Virus record (IMG/VR): IMGVR_UViG_3300050500_000499
Direction: 5' to 3' (one strand)
DNA from: a virus
Length of the DNA: 48,915 nt
The notes beneath the pieces were generated by a model that did no database searches, was not told where the DNA came from, and was given only the letters and a program-made list of their open reading frames with translations. Positions 933 to 48,915 of this stretch are shown here, one piece after another (within the stretch, counting starts at the first letter, position 1; the number at the start of each line of letters is the position of its first letter). Position numbers and translations under genes: made by a program.

Positions 933-1011
933 TGCGGCAAAGTGTCGCACCTATCATGATACCGCACCGTGATACTATCTATAAACACTCAGTGGCGCGC
1001 TCTCTCGAGGA

Positions 1012-1971
1012 TCATGGCGCGCTCGACGTGGCGCTCGCATGGTATGAGTGACCGAGCTTGGCCACTGCGTAGGGCTCGGTCACGGGGAGGCCTTCGAGGG
1101 TGCGCCACCGGACCCAGAACTCCGCAAGAAACATCTTGACCATGTACCGCTTGGCAGCGTTGTTAATGCGACCGGGCGTCCAGAGGCGGCTGACGTCCTC
1201 CCCGGCCTTGCGGCGTTTCTTCCAGTCGTTGGTGCTGCAGCGCTCGCGGGCAGGATCGGTCTCGAGGCGGTTCTTGTAGTCATCGTATACGGCGCGCCAG
1301 GGTGAGGCCTTCCGCATGAACCCGCCGGTGAGGACTCCCATCAGTTTGGACTTGAGAAATGGGTTGTAGGTGACGCTGTCGCGGAGTGCGGTGTCGCCAG
1401 CGGCAGTGGTGTACTCGCGCTGGACGAGGTGTTCCTTGCGGCGGGACCGACCGCTGCCCCCGGCCACATCCAGCCCCGCGTACTTCCAGAAGCTAGAAAT
1501 GTGCCGGGCCTTGTGGGGGTTGAAGTAGGTGATGAGGACTCCGGCCATAGCTGGGCCGATGCCGTAGACCTGGGAGAGGTAAGTATCGTAGATGGGGATG
1601 CCCTCTAGAAGAAGGAGGAGCTGTTGAAACTGGACGCGTTCCTGGCGCTCAATTTGGAAGAACTGATTCGTTAGGACTAGCTCAGAGTAGTCGGAGATCA
1701 GCTCGTCGCCGGTGAAGCCCTCCCGTTCGGGGAGGGTGCGGTTCCGTGCCACGCCCTCTGTGAGTGTTCGATAGGAGGTACGGATGCGGTCAATGATCTT
1801 CTCGGCCTCCTCTTCGGCGGCCTCGGATTGCGGGTCGGGCTTGATGAGGCCTAGTTTGGCGCGGAAGTTTGCGCACAGGCGCAAACCGGCCTGCATTCGA
1901 AGCATCTGGAGATCGTAGGCCCCGCTGACCATGCAGCGGAGGGCGGTGATCTGTGAGTCTCGGTCAGTCAT
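1012..1971 (-). CDS. IS110-family Tnp-domain (Transposase_20, HhH)-like protein without a DEDD/RuvC-like domain, 319 aa.
   Basis: VYGIGPAMAGVLITYF, SSFWKYAGLDVAGGSGRSRRK and YNPFLKSKLMGV match the IS110 C-terminal signature (IPGIGxxTAxxLLAEIG, AAYAGLxPxxxxSG, GNxxLRxxL). The N-terminal 130 aa are helical and lack any GIDVAK-type DEDD start. Start has a GGGAG RBS. Confidence 0.6.
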   Translation of the reverse strand: MTDRDSQITALRCMVSGAYDLQMLRMQAGLRLCANFRAKLGLIKPDPQSEAAEEEAEKIIDRIRTSYRTLTEGVARNRTLPEREGFTGDELISDYSELVLTNQFFQIERQERVQFQQLLLLLEGIPIYDTYLSQVYGIGPAMAGVLITYFNPHKARHISSFWKYAGLDVAGGSGRSRRKEHLVQREYTTAAGDTALRDSVTYNPFLKSKLMGVLTGGFMRKASPWRAVYDDYKNRLETDPARERCSTNDWKKRRKAGEDVSRLWTPGRINNAAKRYMVKMFLAEFWVRWRTLEGLPVTEPYAVAKLGHSYHASATSSAP

Positions 1972-1994
1972 TAGTCGCTCCCTAGGACTTCATA

Positions 1995-2086
1995 GCACGC
2001 TGATGGGAGGTGGGTTGCTAGAATATGGTGGCACGCTGATCGAAGGTTGGGTTACTCGATGCTTGTGGCACGCTGAAGGCTCGCGG
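1995..2086. repeat. Three direct iteron-like repeats of GCACGCTGA, spaced 36-37 bp, upstream of the Tnp-like gene.
   Basis: GCACGCTGA begins at 1995, 2031 and 2068. The first two units extend to about 27 nt (gcacgctgatgggaggtgggttgct and gcacgctgatcgaaggttgggttact). They are followed by ggctcgcgg-ctc-ggctcgcgg. Confidence 0.6.
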
Positions 2087-2118
2087 CTCGGCTCGCGGAT
2101 CATGGCCCGGGCTCGCTT

Positions 2119-2520
2119 TTACTCCTTTTTCCACTTCTCGAGGATGGATTCTTCGACGTGGGACTGCGATGGGGGCGGCGTCGGTGTCGGTTCTGGGGCG
2201 CCCTTGCGCTCTTGTTCGGCTCGTAGCTGGTCCATGTAAAGGCGGAGGGCAGCGGCTTTTTCGTCGTCGATAGGAGTGGCAGGTGCGGTTGACGCTGTTG
2301 CTAGGGCTTGAGTGTGGACGGCTGCGTCGTGTTGAGTAATGTAGGCCGGGGGGCGCTTGCGGGCACGAAGGCGGGAGGCTTTGTCACGACAGCGTTTGTG
2401 GCAGTAGATTTGTTCTGCTTTGAGGGGCATAAATTCGCGTTGGCAAACGAGGCAGGTGATGGGCTTGAGGGGGGATGCGGCGGCGAGGCCGGGGATGCGG
2501 AAGGGGGGGATGCGGAACAT
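2119..2520 (-). CDS. Hypothetical zinc-ribbon protein, first gene of the leftward block, 133 aa.
   Basis: CLVCQ...CHKRC motif followed by a basic segment (RLRARKRP). Duplicated acaaggag RBS, with AAGGAG 8 nt before the ATG. Confidence 0.65.
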   Translation of the reverse strand: MFRIPPFRIPGLAAASPLKPITCLVCQREFMPLKAEQIYCHKRCRDKASRLRARKRPPAYITQHDAAVHTQALATASTAPATPIDDEKAAALRLYMDQLRAEQERKGAPEPTPTPPPSQSHVEESILEKWKKE

Positions 2521-2894
2521 GGGGTGGCTCCTTGTTCTCCTTGTTCTGGTTGTGGGGAGAGTAGCATGGTTTGGGGTGGGGGGATGCGAAAAGGGGCCAA
2601 GGGCCCTTTTGCTGCGCCTACCTTCCTGCCTGCCTGCCTGCCTTCTACGCCCCCCTGCGGGGGCGGCAAGGGCCGTTTTCTGTAGAGTAGGGTAGGTTGA
2701 TTTTGTTCTTAGAGTAAATTTTTTTTATCTACTTCCTGAAAAGGCACCTACCCGCCTCTCGGTGGAAAGGTGCACCCCCCTGGAGGGTGGGAGGGAGGGA
2801 TGGTAGGTGCGCGTAATGGGGCCCGCTGCAATCGGCAATTCGTCCAGGTTTCATAATCCAGGAAGTCTGGCTCACGTCCGCAGGGGGTGTGGCG

Positions 2895-2946
2895 AAAAGG
2901 TGCCATGTTGGCCCCCGGCATGGGCCCCTTGTGGCAGAATTGTCAC
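2895..2946 (-). promoter_or_regulatory. Stem-loop family copy with an upstream TGACAATTC box. Candidate leftward early promoter.
   Basis: The reverse strand reads GTGACAATTCTGCCACAAGGGGCCCATGCCGGGGGCCAACATGGCACCTTTT. This parallels TTGACAATTCCGGGAAAGGGGCCTATGCT at 44008-44036, but the -10 here (CATGCC) is poor. Confidence 0.3.
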
Positions 2947-2971
2947 GTGAAAAAATATTTGGTCGGGGGGC

Positions 2972-3000
2972 TTGACTCGCCCCCGCCGCTTTGCTAGATT
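2972..3000 (+). promoter_or_regulatory. Sigma70-type promoter for the rightward block.
   Basis: TTGACT (2972-2977), a 17-nt spacer, then TAGATT (2995-3000), 47 nt upstream of the ATG at 3047. Confidence 0.6.
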
Positions 3001-3009
3001 GCTTGGCAC

Positions 3010-3027
3010 GGTAGCAATGGTGCTACC
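3010..3027 (+). other. 5' UTR stem-loop of the first rightward transcript.
   Basis: ggtagca-atgg-tgctacc: a 7-bp stem with a 4-nt loop, just downstream of the predicted start site. Confidence 0.4.
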
Positions 3028-3046
3028 GATGGAAGGGAATTGAGCT

Positions 3047-3676
3047 ATGGCGAAAAATAAGCGCAGTGACCGGGCCCGCATCGACGCCGATGGCAAGGAG
3101 ATCCTGGACGTAGGTAATGCCGCCGGTGCGCGGTACAGCCTTGTGCAGCAGGACGGGGTTGACGCCGACGGCGACCCCAAGTACAAGTCAGTCGAGGACT
3201 TCGACGTATACCTTGACCCGCAGCACCCCAAGTACATAGGCGATTTCGGCGTTATCGCCTTTGCTACCATCGGCGTCCACACCAAGGTGGGTAATGTGGC
3301 CAATACCGTGCTGAACAATAAGGAAAAGCCCGGTACGCTGGATGATGCCCGAAATGCCATTACGGATTTCCTGAACGGAGTTCGGGAGGGTCAGTGGCGG
3401 GAACCGGGTGCGGCCATCGGCCCGCGCTACGACGTGGCGATTCTGGCCACAGCGATCGCTCAGGTCACGGGCAAGCCCGAGTCGGATTATACCGGCAAAA
3501 TGGACTGGCGAGTTGACCAGCGAACGGGAGGGCGGGTTGCCCCCGGTGCGGATGGTAGCTACGCAAAGGGGTCAATTACGTATCCCGCTTTTGCGATGCG
3601 GAACAAGGCAGTTGCGGCCAAGTATGCCGAACTCGGTGGTGCGACCGGCAAGGAAGTGGACCTGTCCGCACTCTGA
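3047..3676 (+). CDS. Hypothetical protein, first rightward gene, 209 aa.
   Basis: GAAGGGA RBS. Flanked by its own promoter and a downstream stem-loop. No motif recognised. Confidence 0.7.
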   Translation: MAKNKRSDRARIDADGKEILDVGNAAGARYSLVQQDGVDADGDPKYKSVEDFDVYLDPQHPKYIGDFGVIAFATIGVHTKVGNVANTVLNNKEKPGTLDDARNAITDFLNGVREGQWREPGAAIGPRYDVAILATAIAQVTGKPESDYTGKMDWRVDQRTGGRVAPGADGSYAKGSITYPAFAMRNKAVAAKYAELGGATGKEVDLSAL

Positions 3677-3701
3677 ACGCACTGACTAGCTGCGCGTTGT
3701 G

Positions 3702-3723
3702 GCCAGGGCCTACGGGCCCTGGC
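3702..3723 (+). terminator. GC-rich stem-loop after the first rightward gene.
   Basis: gccagggcc-tacg-ggccctggc: a perfect 9-bp stem 26 nt after the stop. There is no clear T-tract. GGGGGGCCCCCC (about 3771-3782) and aaaagggcccctttc (3828-3842) palindromes follow. Confidence 0.4.
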
Positions 3724-3886
3724 TGCGTTCTGTAGCCCGGCGCGCTTGCGCGGCCCCGCCCCCCAGGGCCAGGGGGGCCCCCCTCTATCGCTTTGCCACT
3801 TCCGCCGCGCGGAGTATTTTTGAAAGGAAAAGGGCCCCTTTCACTGTGGTCGCCCCACTCCTTTTCCTTTCCCCTATCCTTGCCCC

Positions 3887-4519
3887 ATGACTTTCACCAT
3901 GAACGCCGAACTCCACCCCGGAACCAAGTCGTGGCGCCCCACGCGCATCCGCTATTGGTATGAGTCGATTATCGACCAACTGCTGATCGATCCTTCGCTG
4001 AGCCAGCGCGAAATCGCCCGCCGCCTTGGCCGCAGCGAGGTGACGATCGGCACCGTGATGAACAGCGACATCTTCCGCGCCCTTTACGAGCAGCGGCGGA
4101 CCAAGGTTAATGCCGAGCTTCAGGAAAAGATCAATAGCCGATTGCTCGGGCTGGCCATCGACGCCATCGACATCACGCACGAGAAGTTGAAGCTCCAACG
4201 CGACAAGATTCCGTTCGAGGACCTGGTCGATGTCACGGATAAAACGCTCACGAGGCTCGGCTACGGGACCGCGAAAGCGGGCGGGCAAACAGCCGTCGTC
4301 GTCAACAACACGACGCAAATTGTTGCGCCAGTTAGCACTGACCAACTCGAGGCTGCACGGGAAAAATTCCTGAACTTGCAGCGCGCAAAGCTTGTAGCGG
4401 AGCCGGCCCTCCCCGAAGGGGAAAGCGCGCCCTCCGAGGATCTCGCGGCGGAAGTCGAGAAAGAGAATGTGGAGCTCGATCTCGCGGACGCCATCCCGCC
4501 TGGAGCAGAGCTGCTCTAA
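3887..4519 (+). CDS. HTH DNA-binding protein, candidate small terminase subunit, 210 aa.
   Basis: LSQREIARRLGRSEVTIGTVMN is a helix-turn-helix. It is followed by a helical middle region and an acidic tail. The reverse ORF 3785..4534 is a GC-rich shadow. Confidence 0.55.
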   Translation: MTFTMNAELHPGTKSWRPTRIRYWYESIIDQLLIDPSLSQREIARRLGRSEVTIGTVMNSDIFRALYEQRRTKVNAELQEKINSRLLGLAIDAIDITHEKLKLQRDKIPFEDLVDVTDKTLTRLGYGTAKAGGQTAVVVNNTTQIVAPVSTDQLEAAREKFLNLQRAKLVAEPALPEGESAPSEDLAAEVEKENVELDLADAIPPGAELL

Positions 4520-5073
4520 TGACAGAGGCACCATTAGAGCCAGCTCTATATCTAGGGGTCAGCGCTCCTGCCACCAGCAGCGCCGCCCCCTTGCTCCTTC
4601 CGCCGCGAGGCTTTAAGCCGGCAGGAACTCCGTTCTATGTTGAACCGTGTGCTAATCCTTATACACATCGCAGCAGAAGCACGAAGGTCCAAAAGGCAGG
4701 ACTGGCATATGAGAAAAAGGCGAAGGATTTCCTCCGCCGCCGCTTTGGCTCCCGGCTCGACCTCGGACCTTGGTACAAGTTCTTCGACGGCCACCGGACG
4801 CGATACTGCCAGCCCGACGCCGTTGTGCAGGATGAGGCATTGGGAATTTTGATTGTCGAAATCAAGTTGCGCTTTTCCGATCTGGCGTGGTGGCAGTTAA
4901 AGGAACTCTATGCTCCGGTGATTCGGAAATATTTCCAGGTAAAGCATTTGCGTCTGCTCTGTTTGTGCAAGTCGTTTGATCCGGCCGTCGTGGTGCCGGA
5001 AATCGTGCCGCTCATCGATAACTTCGATCCTCGCATCGAGGATTGTGTTTACGCCCAACTTTGGAGGCCCTAA
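4519..5073 (+). CDS. PD-(D/E)xK nuclease-fold protein, 184 aa.
   Basis: CQPDAVVQDEALGILIVEIKLR gives PD...ExK with a 14-residue spacing. TAATG start/stop overlap with the HTH gene. Confidence 0.55.
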   Translation: MTEAPLEPALYLGVSAPATSSAAPLLLPPRGFKPAGTPFYVEPCANPYTHRSRSTKVQKAGLAYEKKAKDFLRRRFGSRLDLGPWYKFFDGHRTRYCQPDAVVQDEALGILIVEIKLRFSDLAWWQLKELYAPVIRKYFQVKHLRLLCLCKSFDPAVVVPEIVPLIDNFDPRIEDCVYAQLWRP

Positions 5074-14205: not shown

Positions 14206-15450
14206 ATGAGCGGTGTAGCTGGACTGCGCGGGACGGGCGATTGGGGAACCGATGAGCGTCCGAAAGATTTCCGCGAAAGCATTCTGTTCTTCTCGCCGCA
14301 AGGCGATTCGCCGATTTTTGCCCTGACAGGCAAGGCGGGCAAAAAGACGGTCACGGATCCGGAGTTCTCGTGGTGGGCGGAAAGCCAGAATCTGATTCGC
14401 CTCACCAATAGCGTGGCATTGACGTCCACGGATCTGACGGTCACGCTCGCGGCGTCGTCGATCGATCCGACGGCCACGCAGATGGCGAATCTCTACGGTA
14501 CTGCAACGCACCTCAAGCACGGCGACATTCTCATGGTCGAGCCGGCGACGGACAGCTCGACGTTCGCCCCGGAGATGCTCGAGGTCGATCTGGTGAACTC
14601 GGATTCGAGCTTCACCGTTCGACGTGGGGCAGGTGGCTCGACGGCTACGGCTGTCAGCAGCACGGCCAGCTTCCTCTTGATCGGGTCAGCGTATGCGGAA
14701 GGCACGGCGGCGCCCCGAGCAACCAGCCGGAATCCGGTCAAGTTTTTCAACTACACGCAGATCTTCAAGAACACGTACGAGATCAGCGGAACGGCGGATG
14801 CGACGACGGCGCGGACGGGCAACGCCTGGTCGAACGACAAGAAGCGCAAAATGTTCGATCACGCGAAGGCGATCGAGCTGAGCATGCTGTTCGGGCAGCG
14901 CGCAGAAACCACTGATCCGGATAACGGGAAGCCGAAGCGGTTCATGGGCAGCCTGCGGACGTTCATTCCGGCGGCGAACACTACGGTGTTTTCGACGGCG
15001 GTCACGGCCGCCCTGTTCGCGGATGCTATTGCGCCTGCTTATAACTTCGACATGGGCGGCGGCGACACCCGGATCGGGTTCTGCGGGAACTTTGCTCGGA
15101 TCGAAATGGGCAAGGTGATCCAGGCCACGACCGGGATCAAGATGGAGCTTGGAAGCGTCATCAAGCTGTGGGGGCTGAATTTCCAGGAATTCATCATGCC
15201 CCAGGGTCGGCTCTTGCTCAAGTCTCATCCGCTGCTCTCACAGCACCCGCTCTACAAGAAGTCGTTGTGGGTGCTCGATTTCAGCGCCATCAAATATGTG
15301 GCGCTCAAGGGGCGCGACACCAGCACCAAGGACGACGTCCAGACGAAGGATGAGGATCTGCGGCGCGGTTTCGTGCAAACCGAGTGTTCGATCATGGTTG
15401 ACGGCGGTGGGCTGAGCTGCGCCTACGTCGGCAACATTTCGGCCACGTAA
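14206..15450 (+). CDS. Major capsid protein, HK97 fold, DUF5309/SU10-like type, 414 aa.
   Basis: ILFFSPQGDSPIFALTGKAGKKTVTDPEFSWWAE fits the N-terminal signature of that capsid family. Position is after the scaffold candidate, and a strong terminator lies downstream. Confidence 0.8.
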   Translation: MSGVAGLRGTGDWGTDERPKDFRESILFFSPQGDSPIFALTGKAGKKTVTDPEFSWWAESQNLIRLTNSVALTSTDLTVTLAASSIDPTATQMANLYGTATHLKHGDILMVEPATDSSTFAPEMLEVDLVNSDSSFTVRRGAGGSTATAVSSTASFLLIGSAYAEGTAAPRATSRNPVKFFNYTQIFKNTYEISGTADATTARTGNAWSNDKKRKMFDHAKAIELSMLFGQRAETTDPDNGKPKRFMGSLRTFIPAANTTVFSTAVTAALFADAIAPAYNFDMGGGDTRIGFCGNFARIEMGKVIQATTGIKMELGSVIKLWGLNFQEFIMPQGRLLLKSHPLLSQHPLYKKSLWVLDFSAIKYVALKGRDTSTKDDVQTKDEDLRRGFVQTECSIMVDGGGLSCAYVGNISAT

Positions 15451-15477
15451 TCTGGGCCGGGGAAAGGAGACACGGAA

Positions 15478-15744
15478 ATGAGGCAAAATCTCGAGGACCC
15501 CCGGCTTTCCGGAAACATCCGGATGCTGGGAACGGCCAGCTCCAGGGTTGGCTTCTTCGGAGCCGCGGCGTCGGGACAGCCGGCCAGCTCGAATCAGGGC
15601 GCGGTTGCGACCACGGCGGCGGCCAGCTTCACGGCGACGCAATGGGGCTATAGCACGAGCACTCAGGCGAATGCTATCGTCACGTTGGTCAATCAGCTTC
15701 GGGCCGACCTCGTCACGCTCGGCTTGATTAAGGGCAGTGCCTAA
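15478..15744 (+). CDS. Small head-associated protein, 88 aa.
   Basis: AAGGAG RBS. RVGFFGAAASGQP...LVNQLRADLVTLGLIKG matches a small protein commonly found just after phage capsid genes. Confidence 0.6.
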   Translation: MRQNLEDPRLSGNIRMLGTASSRVGFFGAAASGQPASSNQGAVATTAAASFTATQWGYSTSTQANAIVTLVNQLRADLVTLGLIKGSA

Positions 15745-18427: not shown

Positions 18428-19444
18428 GTGGGGCTCGAATCGCCAAGTTTTGTCAATGATTTCGTCACGACCAATCCTGATGGGAGCGATGCTCGGAGTC
18501 AGGGGGACGATCATATTCGGAATATGAAATCGGCGCTCAGGGCGACGCTTCCGAATGCAGATAGAGCGTTCTATTTCCCGACGGCGACGACGAAAACGGC
18601 GGATTTTGTTGTTGCGTCGACGGATATGAATAAAACGTTTTTCGTCGATGTGACGAGTCCGAGCACCAGCTTGATCGTGACGCTGCCGACATTAACGGCG
18701 TCGAGTGATGGTTGGTTTTGCACTTTTATCAAAACCACTCAGGACGCAAAGCCGCTGATGATATTCCCGGCGAGCGGGACGCTTCAATCGGGGTTCGTGA
18801 CGGGAATGTCGAGCGCTCGAAGGGCTGCTGCGGGCATCCCGTTCCGGGCGATGTGGAGCGGGGGACTGTGGGTCATTGAGCGCTGTTTCAAGGACCCGAT
18901 CGGTGCTTATATAGATGTGCCGTATGCGTTCCTTCAGCCGGGGCTCGAATGGGCGAGTGGGCAAACGCTGGCAAGTTCGACGCTTTATCCGGAGTTTTTC
19001 GCTTATGCTGGCACGTTGACGCTCCAGGATCGGCGGGGGCGGGTCGGGTTCGGCCGTGACGATATGGGTGGAAGTGCGGCGAATCGACTTACTACGGCGT
19101 CGGGCGGAATAACAGGAACCAGTCTAGGAAGTGCTGGCGGGAATCAAACGGCGCAACTGATTACGTCGAATCTGCCCCCGCACTCGCATGTGATAACGGT
19201 GGCTTCGACGACGCCGAATCCCTCAGTGAATATCAGGAATATAACTTCGTCGACCGGCACGGTGACAATGATGACGGATGCGGCGAATGCAATAGCGGCG
19301 GCTCAACCGCTGGCGAATTTCATGTCGGGGGCGAGTAGCATGTCGCACTTGCACTCGGCAACAGCGGGCGATACGGGGAGTGCAAATGCGTTCGCCGTTG
19401 TGAATCCGGGAATCGTCACCAATATCATGGTTGTCACAGAATAG
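18428..19444 (+). CDS. Tail fiber protein with a phage tail-collar domain, 338 aa.
   Basis: N-terminal GDDHIRNMKSALRATLPN. Collar signature LYPEFFAYAG...LQDRRGRVGFGRDDMGG...LITSNLPPHSHV. Confidence 0.8.
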   Translation: MGLESPSFVNDFVTTNPDGSDARSQGDDHIRNMKSALRATLPNADRAFYFPTATTKTADFVVASTDMNKTFFVDVTSPSTSLIVTLPTLTASSDGWFCTFIKTTQDAKPLMIFPASGTLQSGFVTGMSSARRAAAGIPFRAMWSGGLWVIERCFKDPIGAYIDVPYAFLQPGLEWASGQTLASSTLYPEFFAYAGTLTLQDRRGRVGFGRDDMGGSAANRLTTASGGITGTSLGSAGGNQTAQLITSNLPPHSHVITVASTTPNPSVNIRNITSSTGTVTMMTDAANAIAAAQPLANFMSGASSMSHLHSATAGDTGSANAFAVVNPGIVTNIMVVTE

Positions 19445-25763: not shown

Positions 25764-26563
25764 TGGCTGATCAGAATTTTCTTGACCCGCGCGACGAGCA
25801 AATGATGCGGCAGGACACTGGTCCAGGGCTAGCGGATCGCTGGAGGGGTTGGCTGGCCAGTCCGCAGAATCAAGCCTTTCTGATTCAGGCGGGCACCGCG
25901 ATGCTCCAGCCGAGGCCAGAGGGTCAAACGGCCATAGGGCAAATTGCGGGCTCACTTGGAGCGGGGGGTGAGGCCGCTGCTCGTGTTTCGAAGCAGGAGG
26001 AGGAAGCGACGGAGGCTGCGTCGAGGCAGGCGTATCGGGCGTCGAATGCTGATGCCAATCAGCAAAAAGGGGAAGCGGCACTCTTGCGCGGGCAAGCGGC
26101 GCTAGATCGAGCCGCCACGCTTGCGGAAGGAGGCGGTCGGCCTATGACCGAGGCGCAGCGCCTTCAGTTTCGGTTGAAGGCGCAGACGAAATATAGGGAT
26201 TGGATCGCGAAGCCAGAGGACCCGATTGGTGAGCCTCTGTTGAAAATTCTGGGGGCGAAAACAAAGGTGGATGTAGAGCAAAATCCGGAGTTGCGGCGGC
26301 GGGCCCTCGAATGGTTTTACGAGGGCGCCCCCGATGCAGCGCCGGCGTCGCGCGCCGTTCCGCAGCAGAACCAAACGCCAGTTCCAGGCAACAGCCGGAT
26401 CATGACTCCGAGCGAAGGAGTGGCGAGCGGTGCTTATAATGCGACGGAAGTGTCGAATGCCGTTGAGGCGATTTATGCGGGCAAACGGAGTCGCGAAAGC
26501 ATTCTGCAGCAATATGAGCAAAGGACGGGGCGGCCACGCTCTGACGTACTAGGACAGCTATAA
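25760..26563 (+). CDS. Internal virion protein candidate, 267 aa.
   Basis: GGGAGGGG RBS. Helical and A/Q/E/R-rich. Lies immediately upstream of the giant protein. Confidence 0.5.
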   Translation: MMADQNFLDPRDEQMMRQDTGPGLADRWRGWLASPQNQAFLIQAGTAMLQPRPEGQTAIGQIAGSLGAGGEAAARVSKQEEEATEAASRQAYRASNADANQQKGEAALLRGQAALDRAATLAEGGGRPMTEAQRLQFRLKAQTKYRDWIAKPEDPIGEPLLKILGAKTKVDVEQNPELRRRALEWFYEGAPDAAPASRAVPQQNQTPVPGNSRIMTPSEGVASGAYNATEVSNAVEAIYAGKRSRESILQQYEQRTGRPRSDVLGQL

Positions 26564-29500
26564 TGGCGAATCCGTATTTGGAGCCGGAGGCAGAGGAACA
26601 ACCTGCGCCCCCACAGCCGTCGGCGGATCGTGGTCCGAGCCCGATGAATCCCTATCTGTATCAGGCAGAGGGGAATGCAAATCCGTATATGGATGCTCCG
26701 CAGCCGCAGCCGTCGCAAATGGAAAATGCGGCGTTGAGTCCGAGTGCGGGCCCTGGCTATTTCGATGTGGCTGTTGATTCGGCGATGCGCGGCGGCGCTC
26801 GCGGAATGGAAAAGGTTTCCAATTTCTATGAAGGCATTAAGCGGAAGTTGAGTGGCGAAACCTTTTTTCATGTCCCGGAGCAGCCGGAGGCGACGGCGGC
26901 CAACCCTGAGGTCGAGGGCTTGCTCAACACGCCGATGCAACAGGGGTGGACTAGTCCGAAGTGGTGGGCCGCTCAGGCCGTCAATGCGATTAGTGAAAGT
27001 TGGCCGGAAATGGTTGCGGCGGGGCTCGGCGGTCGGGTCGGCGGCATGCCTGGAATGGTTACGGGGATGTCGGCGGGGAGTGGATTGTTGTCGCTGATTC
27101 CAGCGTTCAAGGAGGCGAAGGCGAAAGGCTTGAGTGACGACGACGCAGTAACGGAGGCGGCGAAGGTTGCAGCGGTCAATGGTGGCACGGCGATGCTCGC
27201 AGGAGTTGCGGGCATGCAAGGCTTCACCGGGGCGCTGATGCACGGAAAGACCGTCGAAGCGCTCAAGGTCCCGATCAAGGAAGCCTTGGTCCAGCTCGGT
27301 CTGGTCCAGCCGACGATTGCGGTGGCCGGCTCTATTGCAAGGGGAATTGCGCAAGGCAAAGAGCTTCAGGATATCAGTCCGTGGGACGTGGCACACGAGG
27401 CGTCGCTCGGCGTTTTGACCCAAGCGCCGTTCACTGGTTATCAGATTCTGGCTCTGTCGAGGCCCCGCCGTGCGCCGAGCCCGCCGGCCGGAGTCGAGCA
27501 TTTGCAGGGGGCGACGGAGGGTGTGCCGGCGCGCGAAATTCCGGTGCAGGATATTCCTGCTGGTGAGAGGATGCCAGCGCCGGAGGGATGGATTGCGGAG
27601 CAAAATACACCGCAGGTTCAAGCGCCGACGTTTTATTCGGCGATCAAGAAATTTGTCGAGGAAAAGGGACAAAATACTGCCACGGGAGAGCAGTGGAGCG
27701 GCACGATTCGGAATGCGCCGGGGATCAAGCTCGAGGAATTCGAAGCGCTGGGGCTTCCAGCATTTTTAGGAGACGAAAAAGGGAGGATTTCGAAAGCGGA
27801 TTTGCTAGCGCATATTGAGGAAAATCAAATCCAGTTGCTGGAAAAAGAATTGACTTCTGGTCCGCCGCTGAAGTGGACACAAACAGAATCTGGATTGCTG
27901 GTGGCCGATGCTCCAGAGGGGACGCGCTACGTTATTGGTCCGCGTCCGGACGGTACGTATACCGTTGCAAATTCGCGCGGCGGTCGCGTTCAGGCTCGGG
28001 ACATAGCTTCGGCCCAAACGCTGGCACAGCAAATTGAAGCACAACGAAGATCTGGACAGGGAGGCGAAACTCAATATGGGGCTTATACGCTGCCGGGACC
28101 AAAGGAGAAGTATGGCGAACTCTTATTCAAGCTGCCAGACGAGGTGGCGAAGCTGGAGGATCAATATAATAGGCTCAATGAAGAATTCATGGCGGCCAGA
28201 GCCGACAATCCACTTTCGACAAGGACGCAGGAGCTTGCGAAGCAATTGCAAGAGGTGGCGGGAAGGTATGCGCAAGAGCGTGAGGGCAAGTTCAAGGCGC
28301 CGCACTTTGGCGAGGAGGGCCGCAATCTGCTGGCTCATGCAAGGTATACTAGCCGCCTCGACAGAGATGGCAAGAATACGCTATTCGTGGAGGAGATTCA
28401 AAGTGATTGGCATCAGAGGGGGAGAAAGCAGGGATACACTGATCCAGAGAAAGTAGCGCAATTAGATCAAGTACGAGAACGGATAAATCAGCTTAGGGAC
28501 AGCACTGATGGCATACTGAATAGCCTTGACGATTTGGGATTCGACAGTACTAGTCGGGCGCGTGCAGCTCTCGTGCGGGAGGGACTAGAGTCTTGGGATA
28601 TTCCTCCAGAATATAGACCCAAGTTACAAGAGTATGTTGATACGCGGCGAGAGTTCCTTCGCCTGCATGATGAGGTTGGTACGGCTGTTGCGGATGCGCC
28701 CTTTAAAAGCTCTTGGGACGAGTTGATGTTCAAGCGCCTCTTGCGCTATGCTGCCGACAATGGATATGAGAGGATTTCGTGGACGAATGGAGATCAGCAA
28801 ATTGCAAGGTATCCCGGCTTGGGCGAAGTCCAAGCGCGGGGCATGGTCGATTTTTATGGCAGCTCGAATAAGATTGGCGCATTGGACAAGATTGCCCAAA
28901 AGTGGGCGAAGAAGCTCGGCATGGATGGAGGCGAGACGACGTTCGATGTGGGGCCACAGGCGATTCGAGCAGACGAGCCTATGGCGAATACGATTGCTGG
29001 TCAAAGACAGCTTTTGAATGCGACCAGGAATCGATATATCAATGTCTCTCCGGAGGCGGGGAGCCGCATCAAGCGGGGGCTGCCGCTATTCGAGCAGAAG
29101 GTTGCTGCACAGGTCATCGATCCGGGTGTGGCGATGGGGGAGGTACCGGGAATCCGCGCGGCGGCGCGCCAGGCAATCAAGGTTTTGGAAAACGTTCGAA
29201 AGGCGATGGGACTCGAAGGGACAGATTTGCGCAAAATCGAGTTGTATCATGATCCAAACGACACGAGTCGAGGCTGGTATCATCCGGACGAGAAAATCAT
29301 TCGCATAAATCTGGCGAATGCACAATCGCCGGAGCAGATTTATTCGACGCTCGCCCACGAATTCGGACATCATTTGATGTACGACGTTTTTGATAAATTG
29401 CCGCCGGAGAAAAAAGTTGCAATTTTCGACGATTACGACAAGTTCGTAATGCGGATGAAAACTGATCCGAGTGCCGCGAACGCCCTCGTGCGACGTAGAG

Positions 29501-32500
29501 CTCCGATTTCTGAGTTCAATGAGCCAAGCTCGACTAGTTGGAGGAATTTGCGTTGGATCGACATGCCACAAGCGGAGCGCGAGTATTGGTTCGGTTTTAA
29601 TGAGTGGTTTGCGGATAACGTGGCGCGGTGGGCGACCACAGACGCCAAGCCTATGTCTGTTGTCGATAAGTTTTTCTCGTCGCTGGGCCGCGTTATCCGG
29701 GATGTGGTGCGCGCCGTTCGACAGGCGGTGACCGGGGAATCGTTCGAAGCGGCACCCGCAATGCGCGCATGGCTCGACAGTTTCATACAGCAGAATGGAG
29801 TGTTTGGACCGGAGGTGGCCAGCACCATGCACTTGCAAGGATTGCTGAAAAATGCTCGTGCGTTGCAAACCGAAGGGACGGAGGCACCGGCTACCCCGCA
29901 AATGGGGAGCACGGGAGGTGGAAGGGCGATCCTCGACGGCGCGGGCGCTGGGGCCGAAGGTCGAGCCTTTGCGGCGCACGGGGATCGGATGAATTGGTTT
30001 TATAAGGTTGCACTTTCGCTTCAGCAGATTGCGAAGCGGAACGAGCACATTTTGCCGCTTCAGCTTTATCGGGAGTTGACCGATTTGCTGAACCTCGAAA
30101 CCATAACGGCATTGAATCAAGCTGATATTAATGTCATGCGGCCGTGGAAGCACTTGAGCCGCGAGGAAGGCGAGGCCCTCGGCCGATTCATCGACGATTA
30201 TGCAAATGGTCGGTTCATGGACCCGAAGGAATTGGCGAAGGACGGACTGCGGAGGCCCACCGATACTGAGCTGCGAGCTCTTATCAAGAAACATGGATTG
30301 ACGGAAAGGGGGGCGAAGCAATTTGGCGCTATTATTACTGATTTGCGAAATGATTTGATGCGATACAAGGACATATTGATGGCGGAAACTAGTCGCATCC
30401 GCGATCCGATCGAACAAGCGCAAGCGATGGAGCGCGTCGAGGCGCAGATTCGTGCAATGGACAGCATTCCGTTCATGCCCTTTGCTCGATTTGGCGATTA
30501 CACCGCCACGACGTATACAGTTGATGGAAAGGTGAAGGAATTCTATCGGTTTGAAACGCAAAAGGCGAGAGATCGCGCCGTTGAGCAAATGCAGGCCGCC
30601 GCGGCGCAGGGCGAACAGGTGAAATCTGGGTTCCTGCACAAGGATGTGCATCCGTTGCTCGGGATGCCCCCAGGCATGCTCGATCGGATTGCAGACAAAT
30701 TGAATTTGAGTCAAAATATGAGGGATTCGATCGACCAGCTCAAGTTCGAATATGCGCCCGCGCAAAGCTTCAGGCATCATTTCCAGCAAAAGGATTTCAC
30801 GCCGGGCTATTCACAAGACTGGCAGCGCGCCTACGCGCAATACAAGTTTCATGGGTCGCATTATTTCGCTCGGATCAAATATGCCGATCAAATGCGAGAT
30901 ATGATTGCGGAAATGACCAATGAACGCTTGACCCGGAACGACCACACGAAGCTCGACCAGATTCGGAATTTGATGACAGAGCACTTGGACACCGTGCTGA
31001 ATCCGAAGGCGGATTATGCTCGGTTGAAGGGAGCGATGTTCCACTTCCACATGGGATTCAGAGTCTCCACCGCCGCGATCAATTTGACTCAGGTCCCGCT
31101 GGTGGCGTGGCCGAATTTGAGCAGTCATTTCGGCGATTTTAAGTCGGCCGCCGCACTGATTCGAGCAACGGGAAAATCGAACACTCTGTTCCGCCGCATG
31201 ACCACGTCGCATATGGCAGCGGACGAATTGCGGATTCTGCAACAGGGCGCCGACGACGGATTGACTGCTCCAAAACAAGCGTATGAACTTGGGGCGTTGA
31301 GCGAAGGGCGGAATCTGTTCAAGGGGCTTGGAAAGGGAATTGAGCGGACCTGGCAGGAAGGCGCGGAGCTTTCCGCTAAAATGTTCGAAATGAGTGAGCA
31401 ATGGGGGCGGACGACGACCCTGCTCGGTGCCTATGATTTGGCGAAAAAGGATCTCGGTTCGAAGTTCGTCCAGAACAGCATTCAGGCGAACCAGTTGCTT
31501 TATCTGCGACTCCGGGAAAAGAATTGGAGTCACGAGGAAGCCGCAGCATACACCGCCGCCACGGTCGCAGTCAAGGAATCCATGTTCGAATATGGGTATC
31601 ATGCGCGGCCGAAAATGTTTCAAGGCGGACTTGGCGCCGTTTTGCTTTTTAAGAGCTTCCAGCAGAACGTGCTGTTCAATTTGTGGAATAATAAGGGAAG
31701 CTTTGTCCGGCAAATGCTATTGCTCGGCGGCGCCGCCGGCCTGGCCGGACTGCCGTTTTCTGAAGACATTAGCTCGATCATGAAAATGCTGAGCAAGCGA
31801 TTTTTGTCCAGTGATTTCGACCTCGAGGACGAAGTGCGGAAGCAAGTTCGAGCATTGAGCAATGGAGCCATTTCGCCTGATCTGGTGATGCACGGCGTTG
31901 GACGTTATGCGTTCGGCGTCCCGCATGTTTTGGATTTGATGGGCTCGACGCTCGGTTTAAGGGACAAAAATGAATACGCTGGAACGTTCCCGGAGCCGCG
32001 GGGCGTTTCGATTAGCCGCAGCATTGGGATGGGACAAGTTTTGCCGTTCGACGTAGGTAGAGCCTTCTCGCCCTCGAAGAGCCCGGAGCGGAATGAATTG
32101 CAGCAAATCCAAAGGGCGAGCGGTGCAGCGTTCGGAATAGGATTCTCGCTTTACAATTTCGCGACGAGCAATCCATTCACAGAGCCAGACAGGAAGAAAT
32201 GGGAGCAGATAATGCCTGCCGCAATTCGCGACGTGAGCACGGCGTGGCGCTTTGCAGAGGAAGGCGGCGAAAGGAATCGACGCGGGAACCAGATCATCAA
32301 GTTCGACCCTTATGATACGATGGGGGCCGCAGAGATTTTAGCAAGGGGTCTTGGCTTCCAGCCGACCAGGCTCGTAGCCCGACAGGAAAACATTGCTGCG
32401 AAAGCGGAGGCGGTGGAGTATTGGGAAATCAGGCGCCAGTTGCTCATGAGGCAATATTGGAGCGCCGTGAAGGACAACAATCCGGAGCAGATCGAGTCGG

Positions 32501-32730
32501 TGATCGAAGCCGTAAAAGCGTTCAATCGGGGCCTGCCTGAAGAAGCAAAAGCGAAAGCAATAACAGGAACGAACTTGCGACAATCAATAGTGAGAAGAGC
32601 ACAAGATAGAGCTCGACAAGAATCGGGGCTGCCAACGGGGCGGAGAGACACAACGCTTTATCAAAGCATCGACGCGCTTTATCCCGAAGGCGCGCCTCCC
32701 GGCTTGCAAGACATTCGACGAGTGCAGTGA
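26563..32730 (+). CDS. Giant polyvalent internal-virion or ejection protein, 2055 aa.
   Basis: HEFGHH zincin motif at 29356-29373. PFARFG (PLxRFG-type motif) at 30478-30495. LFVEEIQSDWHQRG box near 28390. Gly-zipper hydrophobic segments near the N-terminus and around aa 1700. TAATG start overlap. Confidence 0.8.
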   Translation: MANPYLEPEAEEQPAPPQPSADRGPSPMNPYLYQAEGNANPYMDAPQPQPSQMENAALSPSAGPGYFDVAVDSAMRGGARGMEKVSNFYEGIKRKLSGETFFHVPEQPEATAANPEVEGLLNTPMQQGWTSPKWWAAQAVNAISESWPEMVAAGLGGRVGGMPGMVTGMSAGSGLLSLIPAFKEAKAKGLSDDDAVTEAAKVAAVNGGTAMLAGVAGMQGFTGALMHGKTVEALKVPIKEALVQLGLVQPTIAVAGSIARGIAQGKELQDISPWDVAHEASLGVLTQAPFTGYQILALSRPRRAPSPPAGVEHLQGATEGVPAREIPVQDIPAGERMPAPEGWIAEQNTPQVQAPTFYSAIKKFVEEKGQNTATGEQWSGTIRNAPGIKLEEFEALGLPAFLGDEKGRISKADLLAHIEENQIQLLEKELTSGPPLKWTQTESGLLVADAPEGTRYVIGPRPDGTYTVANSRGGRVQARDIASAQTLAQQIEAQRRSGQGGETQYGAYTLPGPKEKYGELLFKLPDEVAKLEDQYNRLNEEFMAARADNPLSTRTQELAKQLQEVAGRYAQEREGKFKAPHFGEEGRNLLAHARYTSRLDRDGKNTLFVEEIQSDWHQRGRKQGYTDPEKVAQLDQVRERINQLRDSTDGILNSLDDLGFDSTSRARAALVREGLESWDIPPEYRPKLQEYVDTRREFLRLHDEVGTAVADAPFKSSWDELMFKRLLRYAADNGYERISWTNGDQQIARYPGLGEVQARGMVDFYGSSNKIGALDKIAQKWAKKLGMDGGETTFDVGPQAIRADEPMANTIAGQRQLLNATRNRYINVSPEAGSRIKRGLPLFEQKVAAQVIDPGVAMGEVPGIRAAARQAIKVLENVRKAMGLEGTDLRKIELYHDPNDTSRGWYHPDEKIIRINLANAQSPEQIYSTLAHEFGHHLMYDVFDKLPPEKKVAIFDDYDKFVMRMKTDPSAANALVRRRAPISEFNEPSSTSWRNLRWIDMPQAEREYWFGFNEWFADNVARWATTDAKPMSVVDKFFSSLGRVIRDVVRAVRQAVTGESFEAAPAMRAWLDSFIQQNGVFGPEVASTMHLQGLLKNARALQTEGTEAPATPQMGSTGGGRAILDGAGAGAEGRAFAAHGDRMNWFYKVALSLQQIAKRNEHILPLQLYRELTDLLNLETITALNQADINVMRPWKHLSREEGEALGRFIDDYANGRFMDPKELAKDGLRRPTDTELRALIKKHGLTERGAKQFGAIITDLRNDLMRYKDILMAETSRIRDPIEQAQAMERVEAQIRAMDSIPFMPFARFGDYTATTYTVDGKVKEFYRFETQKARDRAVEQMQAAAAQGEQVKSGFLHKDVHPLLGMPPGMLDRIADKLNLSQNMRDSIDQLKFEYAPAQSFRHHFQQKDFTPGYSQDWQRAYAQYKFHGSHYFARIKYADQMRDMIAEMTNERLTRNDHTKLDQIRNLMTEHLDTVLNPKADYARLKGAMFHFHMGFRVSTAAINLTQVPLVAWPNLSSHFGDFKSAAALIRATGKSNTLFRRMTTSHMAADELRILQQGADDGLTAPKQAYELGALSEGRNLFKGLGKGIERTWQEGAELSAKMFEMSEQWGRTTTLLGAYDLAKKDLGSKFVQNSIQANQLLYLRLREKNWSHEEAAAYTAATVAVKESMFEYGYHARPKMFQGGLGAVLLFKSFQQNVLFNLWNNKGSFVRQMLLLGGAAGLAGLPFSEDISSIMKMLSKRFLSSDFDLEDEVRKQVRALSNGAISPDLVMHGVGRYAFGVPHVLDLMGSTLGLRDKNEYAGTFPEPRGVSISRSIGMGQVLPFDVGRAFSPSKSPERNELQQIQRASGAAFGIGFSLYNFATSNPFTEPDRKKWEQIMPAAIRDVSTAWRFAEEGGERNRRGNQIIKFDPYDTMGAAEILARGLGFQPTRLVARQENIAAKAEAVEYWEIRRQLLMRQYWSAVKDNNPEQIESVIEAVKAFNRGLPEEAKAKAITGTNLRQSIVRRAQDRARQESGLPTGRRDTTLYQSIDALYPEGAPPGLQDIRRVQ

Positions 32731-34466: not shown

Positions 34467-34592
34467 TCATTTTAGGCGTGCCTTATGCTTTTCGATTACC
34501 CGTTCCAATTTGGAGCGGACTTGTGCATCGAGCTTTTCACCCTCAATGCCCAGGTGGCCAGTCATTTGCTCATGCAGTTCGAAGATGTTCAT
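34467..34592 (-). CDS. Small hypothetical protein, 41 aa.
   Basis: ATGA overlap with the stop of the PolA C-fragment. Translation MNIFELHEQMTGHLGIEGEKLDAQVRSKLERVIEKHKARLK. The longer track ORF would run into polA. Confidence 0.45.
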   Translation of the reverse strand: MNIFELHEQMTGHLGIEGEKLDAQVRSKLERVIEKHKARLK

Positions 34593-35335
34593 ATTGGAAC
34601 CTTTTGACAGTCGCCCCACGACACCGGGGAGGCCGATAAACCCCACGGGATGTGGAGTGGTTTGGGATAAGGAACAGGAACGGGAAGCGCCGCCCGGATT
34701 TGCGGAATGCAATCGGATCGATGGCTCGGGACCTGGAACACAATGCTGTCATGCACCTGGAGCAGGAGTTCGACCCAGGGGCAGCGCGATTTCAATTGGA
34801 GGGCTCCGCGGAAGCAGGTTTCCGCGACCGTTGATTGCGGGCCCCAGGCGAGCGCTTCAGGGAAAATTGAATCGATACGATCATAGAAGATGATCCGATA
34901 GCCGAAGGCATTTTGAATTGTCCGATTCGTCGCAAGGCTTCGTTCCACTCGCTGATGCCAGCCCTTAACGCCGGGGTGGAGTCCGAACCAGTAGGACTGA
35001 AAGCGACTCCAGAAATCCCGGCTATAGCCCAACGTGGATGCAAGTGTTGGAGGTTTTCCGCCATAGTGAGTACCGTGCACTCCACTCTTAAACTTCTGGC
35101 GGACGGCTTTACGCTCCGCCCCGATGAGCCTCGTGAACTGTGTGCCAAGCATATGCTCCGCGTTTTCACTATGAATGTCATAGCCCGTTAGAGCCGCGTT
35201 CAGGAGGAAATCGTCCTCCGCCTCGGCTGCAACAACGAGGGCATCAGCTCCAGCCAAGTCGGCGTCGAAGAGGATATAGCCGGGATCGGGGACGAAGATT
35301 TTCCTGATATTCGGAAGCTTGTATTCGGTTAGCAT
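34589..35335 (-). CDS. polA: Family A DNA polymerase C-terminal fragment with palm and fingers motifs A, B and C, 248 aa.
   Basis: IRKIFVPDPGYILFDADLAGADAL is motif A. RQKFKSGVHGTHYGG is motif B. LLQVHDSIVFQV is motif C. Confidence 0.85.
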   Translation of the reverse strand: MLTEYKLPNIRKIFVPDPGYILFDADLAGADALVVAAEAEDDFLLNAALTGYDIHSENAEHMLGTQFTRLIGAERKAVRQKFKSGVHGTHYGGKPPTLASTLGYSRDFWSRFQSYWFGLHPGVKGWHQRVERSLATNRTIQNAFGYRIIFYDRIDSIFPEALAWGPQSTVAETCFRGALQLKSRCPWVELLLQVHDSIVFQVPSHRSDCIPQIRAALPVPVPYPKPLHIPWGLSASPVSWGDCQKVPI

Positions 35336-35643
35336 CCGCTCGTCCTCGACAGGATATAGGCCCCGCGACCGTGGGAGATTTCGTAGTGAGCATTAACGGA
35401 GCGTAGCGTACTTCGCATTCGCGCAATGTAGCTCACTATGGATTCGATCTTGCATTCGCGGCCGAGCCGTTGCGCGAGCCAGGGGCCGGAACAGCCATTG
35501 CGGCCTGCAATATGGAGATGGATGAAAATCTCTGCCCGCTGGTGGCAGAAAATCATTACATCCTTCCAATAAACGATGGCGGGGCGGCCTCGGACCCAGA
35601 GCAAGGGAGGCTCGAGTCTAACGTCCTGTGGACCCAAATCCAC
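35329..35643 (-). CDS. Winged-helix (OmpR/PhoB Trans_reg_C-like) DNA-binding protein, start uncertain.
   Basis: AEIFIHLHIAGRNGCSGPWLAQRLG...IESIVSYIARMRSTLRSVNAHYEISHGRGAYIL fits the wHTH pattern. Candidate starts are GTG 35643, TTG 35637 or ATG 35556. The stop overlaps the PolA-C start (ATGCTAA). Confidence 0.5.
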   Translation of the reverse strand: MDLGPQDVRLEPPLLWVRGRPAIVYWKDVMIFCHQRAEIFIHLHIAGRNGCSGPWLAQRLGRECKIESIVSYIARMRSTLRSVNAHYEISHGRGAYILSRTSGC

Positions 35644-36073
35644 GGCCCCCACGATCAGTTCCTGGAAGGTGGGTGGCCTCCGCAACCTCGGGGGTCGCAG
35701 GCCGGGGAAGTAGGAGGAGTTGGGCGATACGGTCTTCGTGACGGACATGATAGAGGTCCCAGCCAGTGTTGCAGAGGAGGACGATGAGTTCACCAGTGTA
35801 ATCGGGGTCGATGACGCCGGGGGCATTGGCGACAAAAACGCCCTTCGCCGCCAGACCAGAGCGTGAGCAAACCAGGATGCAATGATTTGGAGGCGGAATG
35901 ACACAAATACCCGTTCGAACGGCGCAGGTCATTTGCGCGCCGATGCTTTTATGTGTTGAGCGCCCCGATTCTGTTTTTAGATAGGCGTGCACGTCGTAGC
36001 CGATCGAATTCGGAAGGGCGCGAATCGGCGGAAGGGCGTCGGCAGCAAAGCGAAAGTAGAGTAGACGATCCAT
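35618..36073 (-). CDS. dut: dUTP diphosphatase (trimeric dUTPase), 151 aa.
   Basis: PNSIGYDVHAY, GLAAKGVFV, GVIDPDYTGELIVLLCN, GDRIAQLLL and GFGSTGR are the canonical dUTPase motifs. The ATG lies 1 nt after the PolA-N stop. Confidence 0.9.
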   Translation of the reverse strand: MDRLLYFRFAADALPPIRALPNSIGYDVHAYLKTESGRSTHKSIGAQMTCAVRTGICVIPPPNHCILVCSRSGLAAKGVFVANAPGVIDPDYTGELIVLLCNTGWDLYHVRHEDRIAQLLLLPRPATPEVAEATHLPGTDRGGRGFGSTGR

Positions 36074-48796: not shown

Positions 48797-48915
48797 TGAG
48801 CTTGGTCCTTTCGGGTTTGGGTTTCAGTTTTGCAGTTCGGATTCGATCTCGCTGATCGTGTAGAGACGATCGACGATCTCTTTGCCGTAGCGATCCATGT
48901 TCTCGACCGCGCCAG
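48789..48915. repeat. Terminal direct repeat copy 2, identical to 1..127.
   Basis: Same 127 nt as the window start, at an offset of 48,788. Confidence 0.9.

Follow-up and report, generated by a model that had tools for sequence, protein, structure and literature searches.

Results

A Nop-domain gene behind a two-unit repeat array

The 48,915-nt IMG/VR virus record IMGVR_UViG_3300050500_000499 (hereafter the window, meaning the whole stretch of DNA that was analysed) carries a minus-strand gene at 1012..1971 which an earlier note, made from the sequence alone, had described as the Tnp half of an IS110-type recombinase. We call this gene tasA and examine it here, together with the short array of repeats directly upstream of it, as a candidate TIGR-Tas system. 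The open reading frame (ORF) is intact and codes for 319 aa, and, as the note had reported, it is preceded by a normal ribosome-binding site. The core features of the locus are as follows.

1012..1971, minus strand: tasA, 319 aa; coiled coil at residues ~3-122 and Nop C-terminal domain at ~126-311, no nuclease domain
1978..1983, minus strand: ribosome-binding site AGGGAG, 6 nt upstream of the tasA ATG, read from the sequence
1993..2074, minus strand: two-unit TIGR array of the dual-repeat type; 21 nt separate it from the tasA start codon downstream
2066-2074, minus strand: edge AGCGTGCCA, array repeat
2057-2065, minus strand: spacer 1A CAAGCATCG, unit 1
2048-2056, minus strand: loop AGTAACCCA, unit 1
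2038-2047, minus strand: spacer 1B ACCTTCGATC, unit 1
2029-2037, minus strand: edge AGCGTGCCA, second edge repeat
2020-2028, minus strand: spacer 2A CCATATTCT, unit 2
2011-2019, minus strand: loop AGCAACCCA, unit 2
2002-2010, minus strand: spacer 2B CCTCCCATC, unit 2
1993-2001, minus strand: degenerate terminal edge AGCGTGCTA, CCA mutated to CTA

On the gene strand the array reads AGCGUGCCA / CAAGCAUCG / AGUAACCCA / ACCUUCGAUC / AGCGUGCCA / CCAUAUUCU / AGCAACCCA / CCUCCCAUC / AGCGUGCUA. It alternates an edge repeat, AGCGUGCCA, with a loop repeat, AG[U/C]AACCCA, each 9 nt long and separated by spacers of 9, 10, 9 and 9 nt, giving units of 37 and 36 nt; Tandem Repeats Finder reported a period of 37 with a score of 99 at 1995-2076, directly upstream of tasA. 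Both repeat types have the form AG-N4-CCA, in which the box C motif CCA is as published (PMC12045711) and box D is AG, not UG, and the AG box D holds across the relatives with this repeat consensus. Both internal edge repeats and both loop repeats match the family consensus exactly, and degenerate terminal repeats are normal in TIGR arrays (PMC12045711). A chain of at least five AG....CCA repeats at 17-20-nt spacing was found once in the genome, on the tasA strand, and in none of 100 Markov-1 simulated genomes.

No Rfam families and no tRNAs were found, and the 160 nt of upstream RNA fold less stably than shuffled controls (z = +1.45), as would be expected of a dual-repeat array and not of a bridge RNA. 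The suggestion to look in the adjoining non-coding DNA for a bridge-RNA-like structured transcript was a sound one as to a guide-like RNA, for which the array is the candidate, and failed as to the structured transcript. The "upstream iterons" of the earlier note are probably this same two-unit array at 1993-2074, and the repeats directly upstream of tasA are better described as guide-RNA units than as protein-binding iterons; the identification is tentative, since a second set of repeats is present at 2491-2596.

The tasA product belongs to the Tas family

The protein scored 112.2 bits against NCBIfam NF052498 ("TIGR-Tas system RNA-guided endonuclease", TIGR_Tas_endo), for which the curated cutoff is 100, and was assigned by PHROGs to phrog_4285, labelled "transposase" (E 3.6e-30). 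A phmmer search at E <= 1e-3 placed it in a family of 2,567 cluster representatives. In an alignment of 61 relatives, all 61 matched the TIGR-Tas model, and much more strongly than they matched IS110-type models. The Pfam domain Transposase_20 (PF02371), on which the recombinase reading had relied, was matched by residues 130-180 only (51 residues, E = 0.13), with 13.1 bits against a gathering score of 21.3, so that the claimed match over the C-terminal part did not stand for this protein itself. PF02371 was, however, matched by 30 of the 61 close relatives (best E 1e-6) and the NCBIfam IS110 model by 17, and family-level homology to the IS110 Tnp domain is, on this sequence evidence, real though remote.

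Searching the Protein Data Bank (PDB) with the sequence gave matches to TaTasR (9mty, E 3e-12) and SpTasH (E 6.7e-9) only. A profile built from the 61 relatives raised these matches to 6e-16 and 1.6e-13, respectively, and the same profile search did not reach IS621, the resemblance to which is seen at the level of the fold only. A confident AlphaFold (AF2) model computed on the 61-relative alignment (predicted local distance difference score, pLDDT, 88; predicted template-modelling score, pTM, 0.82) shows three helices (residues 3-40, 50-71 and 95-122) and, after them, the Nop C-terminal domain. The ten best Foldseek matches to it were TasH and TasR chains solved by cryo-electron microscopy (TasH 9w04/9w03, TasR 9mty; E 1e-8 to 7e-7, probability 1.0, template-modelling (TM) score normalised to the target up to 0.69). 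IS621 was recovered as a distant match (E 6.6e-3, TM 0.35); the comparison with IS621 that the earlier note had called for therefore does find a resemblance, with TasH and TasR far closer. Nop5 and Nop56 gave E values of 0.4-2.4 (above 0.3) and a TM of about 0.3, and an identity as a box C/D snoRNP protein of the Nop5/Nop56/58 type was ruled out by this poor fold match and by the lack of the fibrillarin-binding N-terminal domain.

The nuclease domains of TasH (HNH) and TasR (RuvC) sit at the N-terminus (PMC12045711). No HNH or RuvC domain was found by Pfam in the tasA product or in any of the 61 members, and PF01548, the DEDD domain, had no match at E values up to 10 in the tasA ORF and none in the neighbouring ORFs or the 61 relatives, in agreement with the statement that the DEDD/RuvC-like half is missing. 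The first ~125 residues, described earlier as ~130 aa of helix, are indeed modelled as three helices with no nuclease fold. The protein starts 8 residues ahead of the first conserved helix (consensus LRxMVRGAYDLQxLRMQ), after which comes a variable acidic linker; its N-terminus aligns with the start of 60 relatives, and most of the 150 best-scoring relatives share the same start point. Because the protein begins at the coiled-coil helix, with no space for either nuclease domain and none found by Pfam, we assign it, on its sequence and modelled fold, to the TasA subtype, and the TasR and TasH subtypes were ruled out. All 38 invariant residues of the 61-sequence alignment are kept in the tasA product, which the alignment includes by construction. 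The name "RNA-guided endonuclease" attached to NF052498, which all 61 relatives match, would mislabel this protein and other nuclease-free TasA proteins, since they have no nuclease domain.

SpTasH processes its own guide precursor by means of Y289 and H296 (PMC13421893), which align to Y301 and H308 of the tasA product. Y301 is invariant (61/61), and a His occupies column 310 or 311 in essentially all 61 sequences. A Tyr/His pair has been described as the mark of the dual-repeat clade (bioRxiv 10.64898/2026.09.09.750476); this processing pair of dual-repeat Tas proteins is conserved in the tasA product, for which catalysis is predicted. The GIGP motif singled out by the earlier note is present and conserved (G137, G139, P140). 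Its proposal of a catalytic serine in the GGSG segment has to be dropped: S173 lies in a variable column (A in 24, R in 19 and S in 5 of 61), and S176, conserved in the tasA clade, is aligned to Lys in TaTasR.

Related loci keep the repeats and vary the spacers

We compared the locus with 25 related ones, comprising 22 viral loci (L001-L022) and the contigs of three close homologues (L046, L047, L048). In 19 of the 25 we found AGCG.GCCA / AG.AA.CCA repeats with 9-nt spacers. In each case the repeats run on the tas strand and directly adjoin the gene, on its upstream or its downstream side, and the spacers of one locus are unrelated to those of another; no repeat chain was found on the opposite strand. 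Array sizes in the relatives ranged from a few repeats up to 58 in a single chain, with about 100 in L046. No chain with this motif was seen in L014, L015, L017, L018, L020 or L049, and L018 and L020 have 36- or 39-nt arrays of different repeats. Neither whole guide unit of the window had an exact match in the viral and metagenome collections other than in the identical short contigs L048 and L049. An independent JGI sample also yielded an assembly (L048) in which 2,093 bp, the array among them, are identical to the window. The source samples are from rhizosphere or soil (JGI 3300009156 and 3300009162).

Of the 11 neighbouring proteins of tasA, none had a homologue in the 22 viral loci. Since no neighbour gene accompanies tas in other phages, tasA and its array appear to make up a module that travels on its own.

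The closest relative in a cultured phage is ORF034 of Ralstonia phage RSL1 (NC_010811.2), with 31% identity over 97% of the query. It is annotated as "transposase" and is a Tas homologue. The unannotated 1.4-kb gap that follows it (L050 ~3500-4830, record ~14250-15580) has a 36-nt periodicity with AG..(C)CC-type repeats and is a TIGR array of ~35 units; the public annotation misses both the Tas identity and the array. RSL1 differs from the phage studied here in being a jumbo phage, in its long downstream array and in the 345-aa size of the protein.

Probable remnants of array sequence flank tasA

The array in the window is the smallest among the loci examined, and further copies of the edge repeat lie on both sides of the gene:

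2075..2118, minus strand: leader of 44 nt from the stop codon of the upstream ORF to the first edge repeat; sequence, repeat family D9
993..1023, minus strand: two orphan edge repeats AGCGCGCCA at the tasA 3' end, without a loop repeat after either

The leader holds three degenerate, off-register edge-like copies, AGCGAGCCC (2109-2117), CGCGAGCCG (2089-2097) and CGCGAGCCT (2077-2085), with irregular spacing of 20, 12 and 11 nt, and we infer that they are relics of the array. At the other end, the orphan edge at 1015-1023 forms the last three tasA codons (Ser-Ala-Pro) and that at 993-1001 lies 10 nt past the TGA. The edge consensus AGCGNGCCA occurs at six sites genome-wide on both strands, four of which flank tasA on its strand (two in the array and those at 1015-1023 and 993-1001). 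Because downstream arrays of relatives begin at or over the stop codon, the orphan edges at 993-1023 are probably the stump of a lost downstream array; alternatively, they are possibly a site on its own mRNA that TasA binds or cleaves.

The guides do not target the phage itself

In characterised systems, spacers A and B of a guide pair with adjoining stretches on opposite DNA strands, a gap of 0-2 bp is tolerated and no protospacer-adjacent motif (PAM) is needed (PMC12045711). From the reported 8-nt 3' overhangs we deduce, beyond what is stated in the published text or figure, that a target should read 5'-spacer A + reverse complement of spacer B-3'. The predicted targets on one strand are then 5'-CAAGCATCG GATCGAAGGT-3' and 5'-CCATATTCT GATGGGAGG-3', corresponding to contiguous 18/19-bp duplexes 5'-CAAGCATCGGATCGAAGGT-3' and 5'-CCATATTCTGATGGGAGG-3'.

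The whole genome was searched with A + rc(B) and rc(A) + B (rc, reverse complement) for both units and for 9/10-nt variants. No self-target within 3 mismatches was found anywhere in the genome for either guide or either geometry, and five sites (four distinct) were listed at 4 mismatches, about the number that we estimate for chance. Near-matches with 1 mismatch lie side by side at 5020-5037 and 18479-18495, coming from different units (1B+2B, 2B+1A); they were rejected as targets and attributed to chance owing to the cross-unit pairing and wrong orientation. None of 192 unique spacer pairs of relatives matched the window or any of the loci within 1 mismatch.

Public viral, metagenome and species-genome collections were scanned for exact matches. 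Among viral contigs, unit 2 gave 3 matches in one geometry and 2 in the other (GC 30 to 52%) and unit 1 gave 1 match; unit 2 gave 29 matches in metagenomes from unrelated environments. All of these were judged to be at chance level, their numbers being near our rough estimates for random 18/19-mers. So were the 17 matches of unit 1 in 185,579 species genomes, for which we estimate ~13 by chance and which fell in scattered taxa and unrelated contexts. The authors describing the TIGR-Tas family report the same difficulty in finding natural targets (bioRxiv 10.64898/2026.09.09.750476). The targets lie outside the phage itself, and since neither occurs in its genome, the host or competing mobile elements are their most likely location.

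Genomic setting

An exact direct repeat of 127 bp at both window ends (1-127 and 48789-48915) identifies the window as a complete phage genome of ~48.8 kb, terminally redundant or circularly assembled. Its GC content is 56%, and megablast searches with 25 kb of the window against 50,697 phage records gave no match to a known phage. The genome encodes a terminase, a portal-like protein, a major head protein and virion and ejection proteins, together with a primase, a split DNA polymerase, an exonuclease, a Sak4-like protein, a deoxynucleoside monophosphate (dNMP) kinase and a fusion of ParB with a methyltransferase. The ORFs tested included no integrase.

A minus-strand block begins just to the left of the divergent region 2521-3046 with a zinc-ribbon ORF followed by the array, tasA and small ORFs, and it runs on across the terminal repeat into the replication genes. 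We infer that tasA stands at the head of a probable early block; it is the second ORF after the divergent region, in line with the earlier note, which places it second in the early operon. The first is:

2119..2520, minus strand: zinc-ribbon ORF upstream of tasA in the same operon, 133 aa, CxxC...CxxxC zinc ribbon

This ORF has a weak, sub-threshold match to the NinG N-terminus (E 2.6e-4) and is of unknown function in PHROGs. It had no homologues in the 22 viral loci, and conservation next to tas elsewhere was not seen.

Several other observations concern this region. A 12-nt core, GGGGATGCGRAA, occurs three times within a 17-nt repeat family at 2491-2610 and 2662-2679; two copies are in tandem, coding FRIP-FRIP at the annotated start of the zinc-ribbon ORF, and the third lies 74 nt further on. 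The divergent early region also holds two GC hairpins with T-runs, GGGGCCAAGGGCCCTTTT and GGCGGCAAGGGCCGTTTT. These repeats and hairpins could be operators or terminators, and may be what the earlier note meant by iterons. A near-identical translation-initiation context, CCTAGG(G)AGCGAC-N2/3-ATG, is common to tasA (1978-1990) and the next ORF, 660-854 (856-868), on the minus strand.

Elsewhere, a 2,055-aa ORF in the structural block (26563-32730) matches giant phage proteins over its C-terminal 750 aa, among them "DarB-like antirestriction" (phrog_10089), and has a short metalloprotease-like stretch. The DNA polymerase is seemingly split: the minus-strand ORFs 34589-35335 and 36075-37823 match positions 554-986 and 996-1233 of one PHROG profile, with another ORF (35329-35904) and a spacer of ~170 nt between them. 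At 38177-39556 on the minus strand, a ParB-like N-terminal domain is fused to a DNA methyltransferase. ParB homologues sometimes share an operon with TasA in other phages; the fusion gene is not adjacent to tasA.

Discussion

Comparison with known systems

The closest described counterparts are TIGR-TasA systems of the dual-repeat type, for example that of Flavonifractor plautii (FpTIGR; PMC12045711). Shared features are a solo Nop-domain protein without a nuclease, an adjacent array on the same strand with two alternating 9-nt repeats, 9-nt spacers and a 36-nt period, the CCA box C, the phage-borne location and the Tyr/His processing pair. The array in the window differs in having two units against a typical 5-15, in its position within an operon, at a distance of 21 nt from the start codon and lacking a terminator, in its AG rather than UG box D, and in the orphan edge repeats that overlap the tasA 3' end.

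Among solved structures, SpTasH from Salicola phage CGphi29 (PDB 9w03/9w04/21kl) and TaTasR (PDB 9mty) are the best matches in both sequence and structure, sharing with the tasA product a coiled-coil dimer scaffold, a Nop domain and a C-terminal motif ...PY....KLGH that contains the processing residues. Their identity to the tasA product is 16-20% in structural alignments, and they cut DNA with an N-terminal HNH (TasH) or RuvC (TasR) domain, neither of which is present in the tasA product. With IS110 and IS621 the system shares a remote homology of the coiled coil and the RNA-binding "Tnp" domain (Foldseek E 6.6e-3; PF02371 in half of the relatives) and a two-part guide flanked by box C/D-like motifs (PMC12045711). 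In contrast to those elements, the tasA locus has no DEDD/RuvC domain, conserved catalytic Ser, structured bridge RNA or insertion-sequence mobility, and its guides are arrayed 36-nt units. In its predicted action as an RNA-guided complex that sits on DNA and blocks polymerases without cleavage, TasA would resemble dCas9-like and type IV or V-M CRISPR effectors, from which it differs in an unrelated fold, a guide split across both DNA strands and the absence of a PAM.

A minimal TIGR-TasA system

Judged from sequence and modelled fold, the locus shows every sequence-testable feature of a dual-repeat TIGR-TasA system: a Nop-domain Tas protein, an adjacent array of two alternating repeats, the box motifs, conserved repeats with variable spacers on the tas strand, and the Tyr/His dyad. 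We consider it very probable that the locus is a minimal system of this kind, situated in the early operon, which runs leftward, of a tailed phage whose 48.8-kb genome is complete. By analogy with other Tas proteins, its most likely role would be that of an early-expressed, RNA-guided, non-cleaving DNA binder directed against the DNA of the host or of rival elements. The earlier note's idea of an early DNA-targeting factor is thus probably right, and its view that the gene is not an insertion sequence is borne out. A newly domesticated Tnp domain it is not, since the protein passes the curated NCBI cutoff and belongs to the known TasA class of TIGR-Tas (Faure et al. 2025, PMC12045711). The evolutionary direction implied by domestication is also reversed, because Faure et al. 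regard TasA as the probable ancestor and IS110 as a later fusion with a DEDD transposase (PMC12045711).

In the proposed mechanism, transcription from the divergent region at ~2521-3046 would read through the zinc-ribbon gene, the two-unit array and tasA. As in other Tas proteins, TasA would dimerise via its coiled coil, and it would cut the precursor inside the edge repeats by means of Y301 and H311 or H308, by analogy with SpTasH Y289/H296, to free one 37-nt and one 36-nt tigRNA. In each tigRNA, spacer A would pair with one DNA strand and spacer B with the adjoining stretch of the other, specifying a PAM-free 18/19-bp site. The complex would then bind and bend its target, presumably in the host or in competing mobile elements, and block transcription or replication; given the lack of an HNH or RuvC domain it should not cut. 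TasA proteins do bind DNA and repress transcription under RNA guidance (bioRxiv 10.64898/2026.09.09.750476). With only 21 nt between the final edge repeat and the start codon, maturation of the guides would shorten the tasA 5' untranslated region (UTR) as well, perhaps coupling guide production to TasA expression, and cleavage of edge repeats before the start and around the stop codon might likewise shape the tasA mRNA; both suggestions are speculative.

Several points weigh against this interpretation. All functional steps are carried over by analogy from Tas proteins with at most ~20% identity in structural alignments, and the TasA proteins for which repression is reported come from other lineages: MbTasA is from a Minisyncoccota (candidate phyla radiation, CPR) bacterium, in a study that centres on stem-loop systems as opposed to the dual-repeat type considered here (bioRxiv 10.64898/2026.09.09.750476). 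Box D is AG, compared with the UG of TasR arrays, the target geometry is deduced from the published 8-nt 3' overhang, and no sigma-70-like promoter was found for the operon. A natural target was found neither in the phage's own genome nor in the loci of relatives or the public collections. Finally, there are only two guides against tens in close relatives, and orphan and degenerate edge repeats flank the gene, for which reasons the array may be eroding.

This last possibility, taken further, would make the locus a decaying remnant, its array shrunk to two units and orphan repeats and useful targeting gone. The contrast with the 5 to ~100 repeats of relatives, the orphan edges at the tasA 3' end, the degenerate copies in the leader, the change of CCA to CTA in the terminal edge and the absence of an identified target would all fit such a history. 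We nevertheless think it improbable, as the tasA ORF is intact with its 38 invariant residues (in the alignment that includes it by construction), the internal edge and loop repeats are exactly on the family consensus, the same 2,093-bp stretch with the array was recovered from an independent sample, and a degenerate terminal repeat is what TIGR arrays normally have (PMC12045711). Still less likely is a self-directed role, in which the guides would lead TasA to sites in the genome of this phage and so set the timing of gene expression, replication, partition or packaging. In its favour, control of the viral life cycle has been proposed in the literature as one role, tasA stands at the head of the early/replication block and a ParB-methyltransferase gene is present elsewhere in the genome. 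Against it, the ParB-methyltransferase gene does not neighbour tasA, neither guide has a site within 3 mismatches in the complete genome in either geometry, and the 4-mismatch sites are about as many as we estimate for chance.

The least credible of these alternatives, to which we give hardly any weight, is a domesticated IS110 Tnp half working without a guide RNA, in which the protein would bind upstream iterons and act in serine-type recombination or replication initiation. It can draw on the weak PF02371 match, stronger in 30 of the 61 relatives, on the distant structural match to IS621 and on the tandem repeats adjoining tasA. Against it, the protein agrees far more closely with the Tas model and the Tas structures, the serine put forward as catalytic, Ser173, is unconserved and the repeats have the exact edge-spacer-loop-spacer layout of a guide array; moreover, relatives keep the repeats and vary the spacers, the opposite of what is expected of iterons. 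An IS110-family recombinase was ruled out by the missing DEDD domain, the sub-threshold Tnp match, and the lack of a conserved Ser and of a bridge RNA.

Within the TIGR-TasA interpretation, a more specific version can be put forward as a rather unlikely one, namely that the phage has reduced its TIGR system to two unchanging guides, placed in the tasA 5' UTR, for the early silencing of two loci of the host or of a rival phage, and that TasA, by cleaving the edges on both sides of the ORF, cuts out its own mRNA and so regulates itself. Should this hold, the phage would provide a natural case of a TIGR system used as a hard-wired repressor rather than as a diversifying, defence-like array.

Implications

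TIGR-Tas systems first entered the literature in 2025, and what they target and do in nature has yet to be established (PMC12045711; bioRxiv 10.64898/2026.09.09.750476). The locus adds no new principle, being a TIGR-TasA system of an already described type; its particular features are the two-guide array within an operon, the relics of a larger array and the complete genome that excludes self-targeting. It offers a clean test case, in that a complete phage genome carries a nuclease-free effector with two guides only, neither of them self-targeting. With the host known, the question of what a phage TasA targets shrinks to two 18/19-bp sites. More broadly, the example of RSL1 ORF034 shows that phage genes bearing the label "IS110 transposase" may in fact encode Tas proteins and lie beside unannotated guide arrays.

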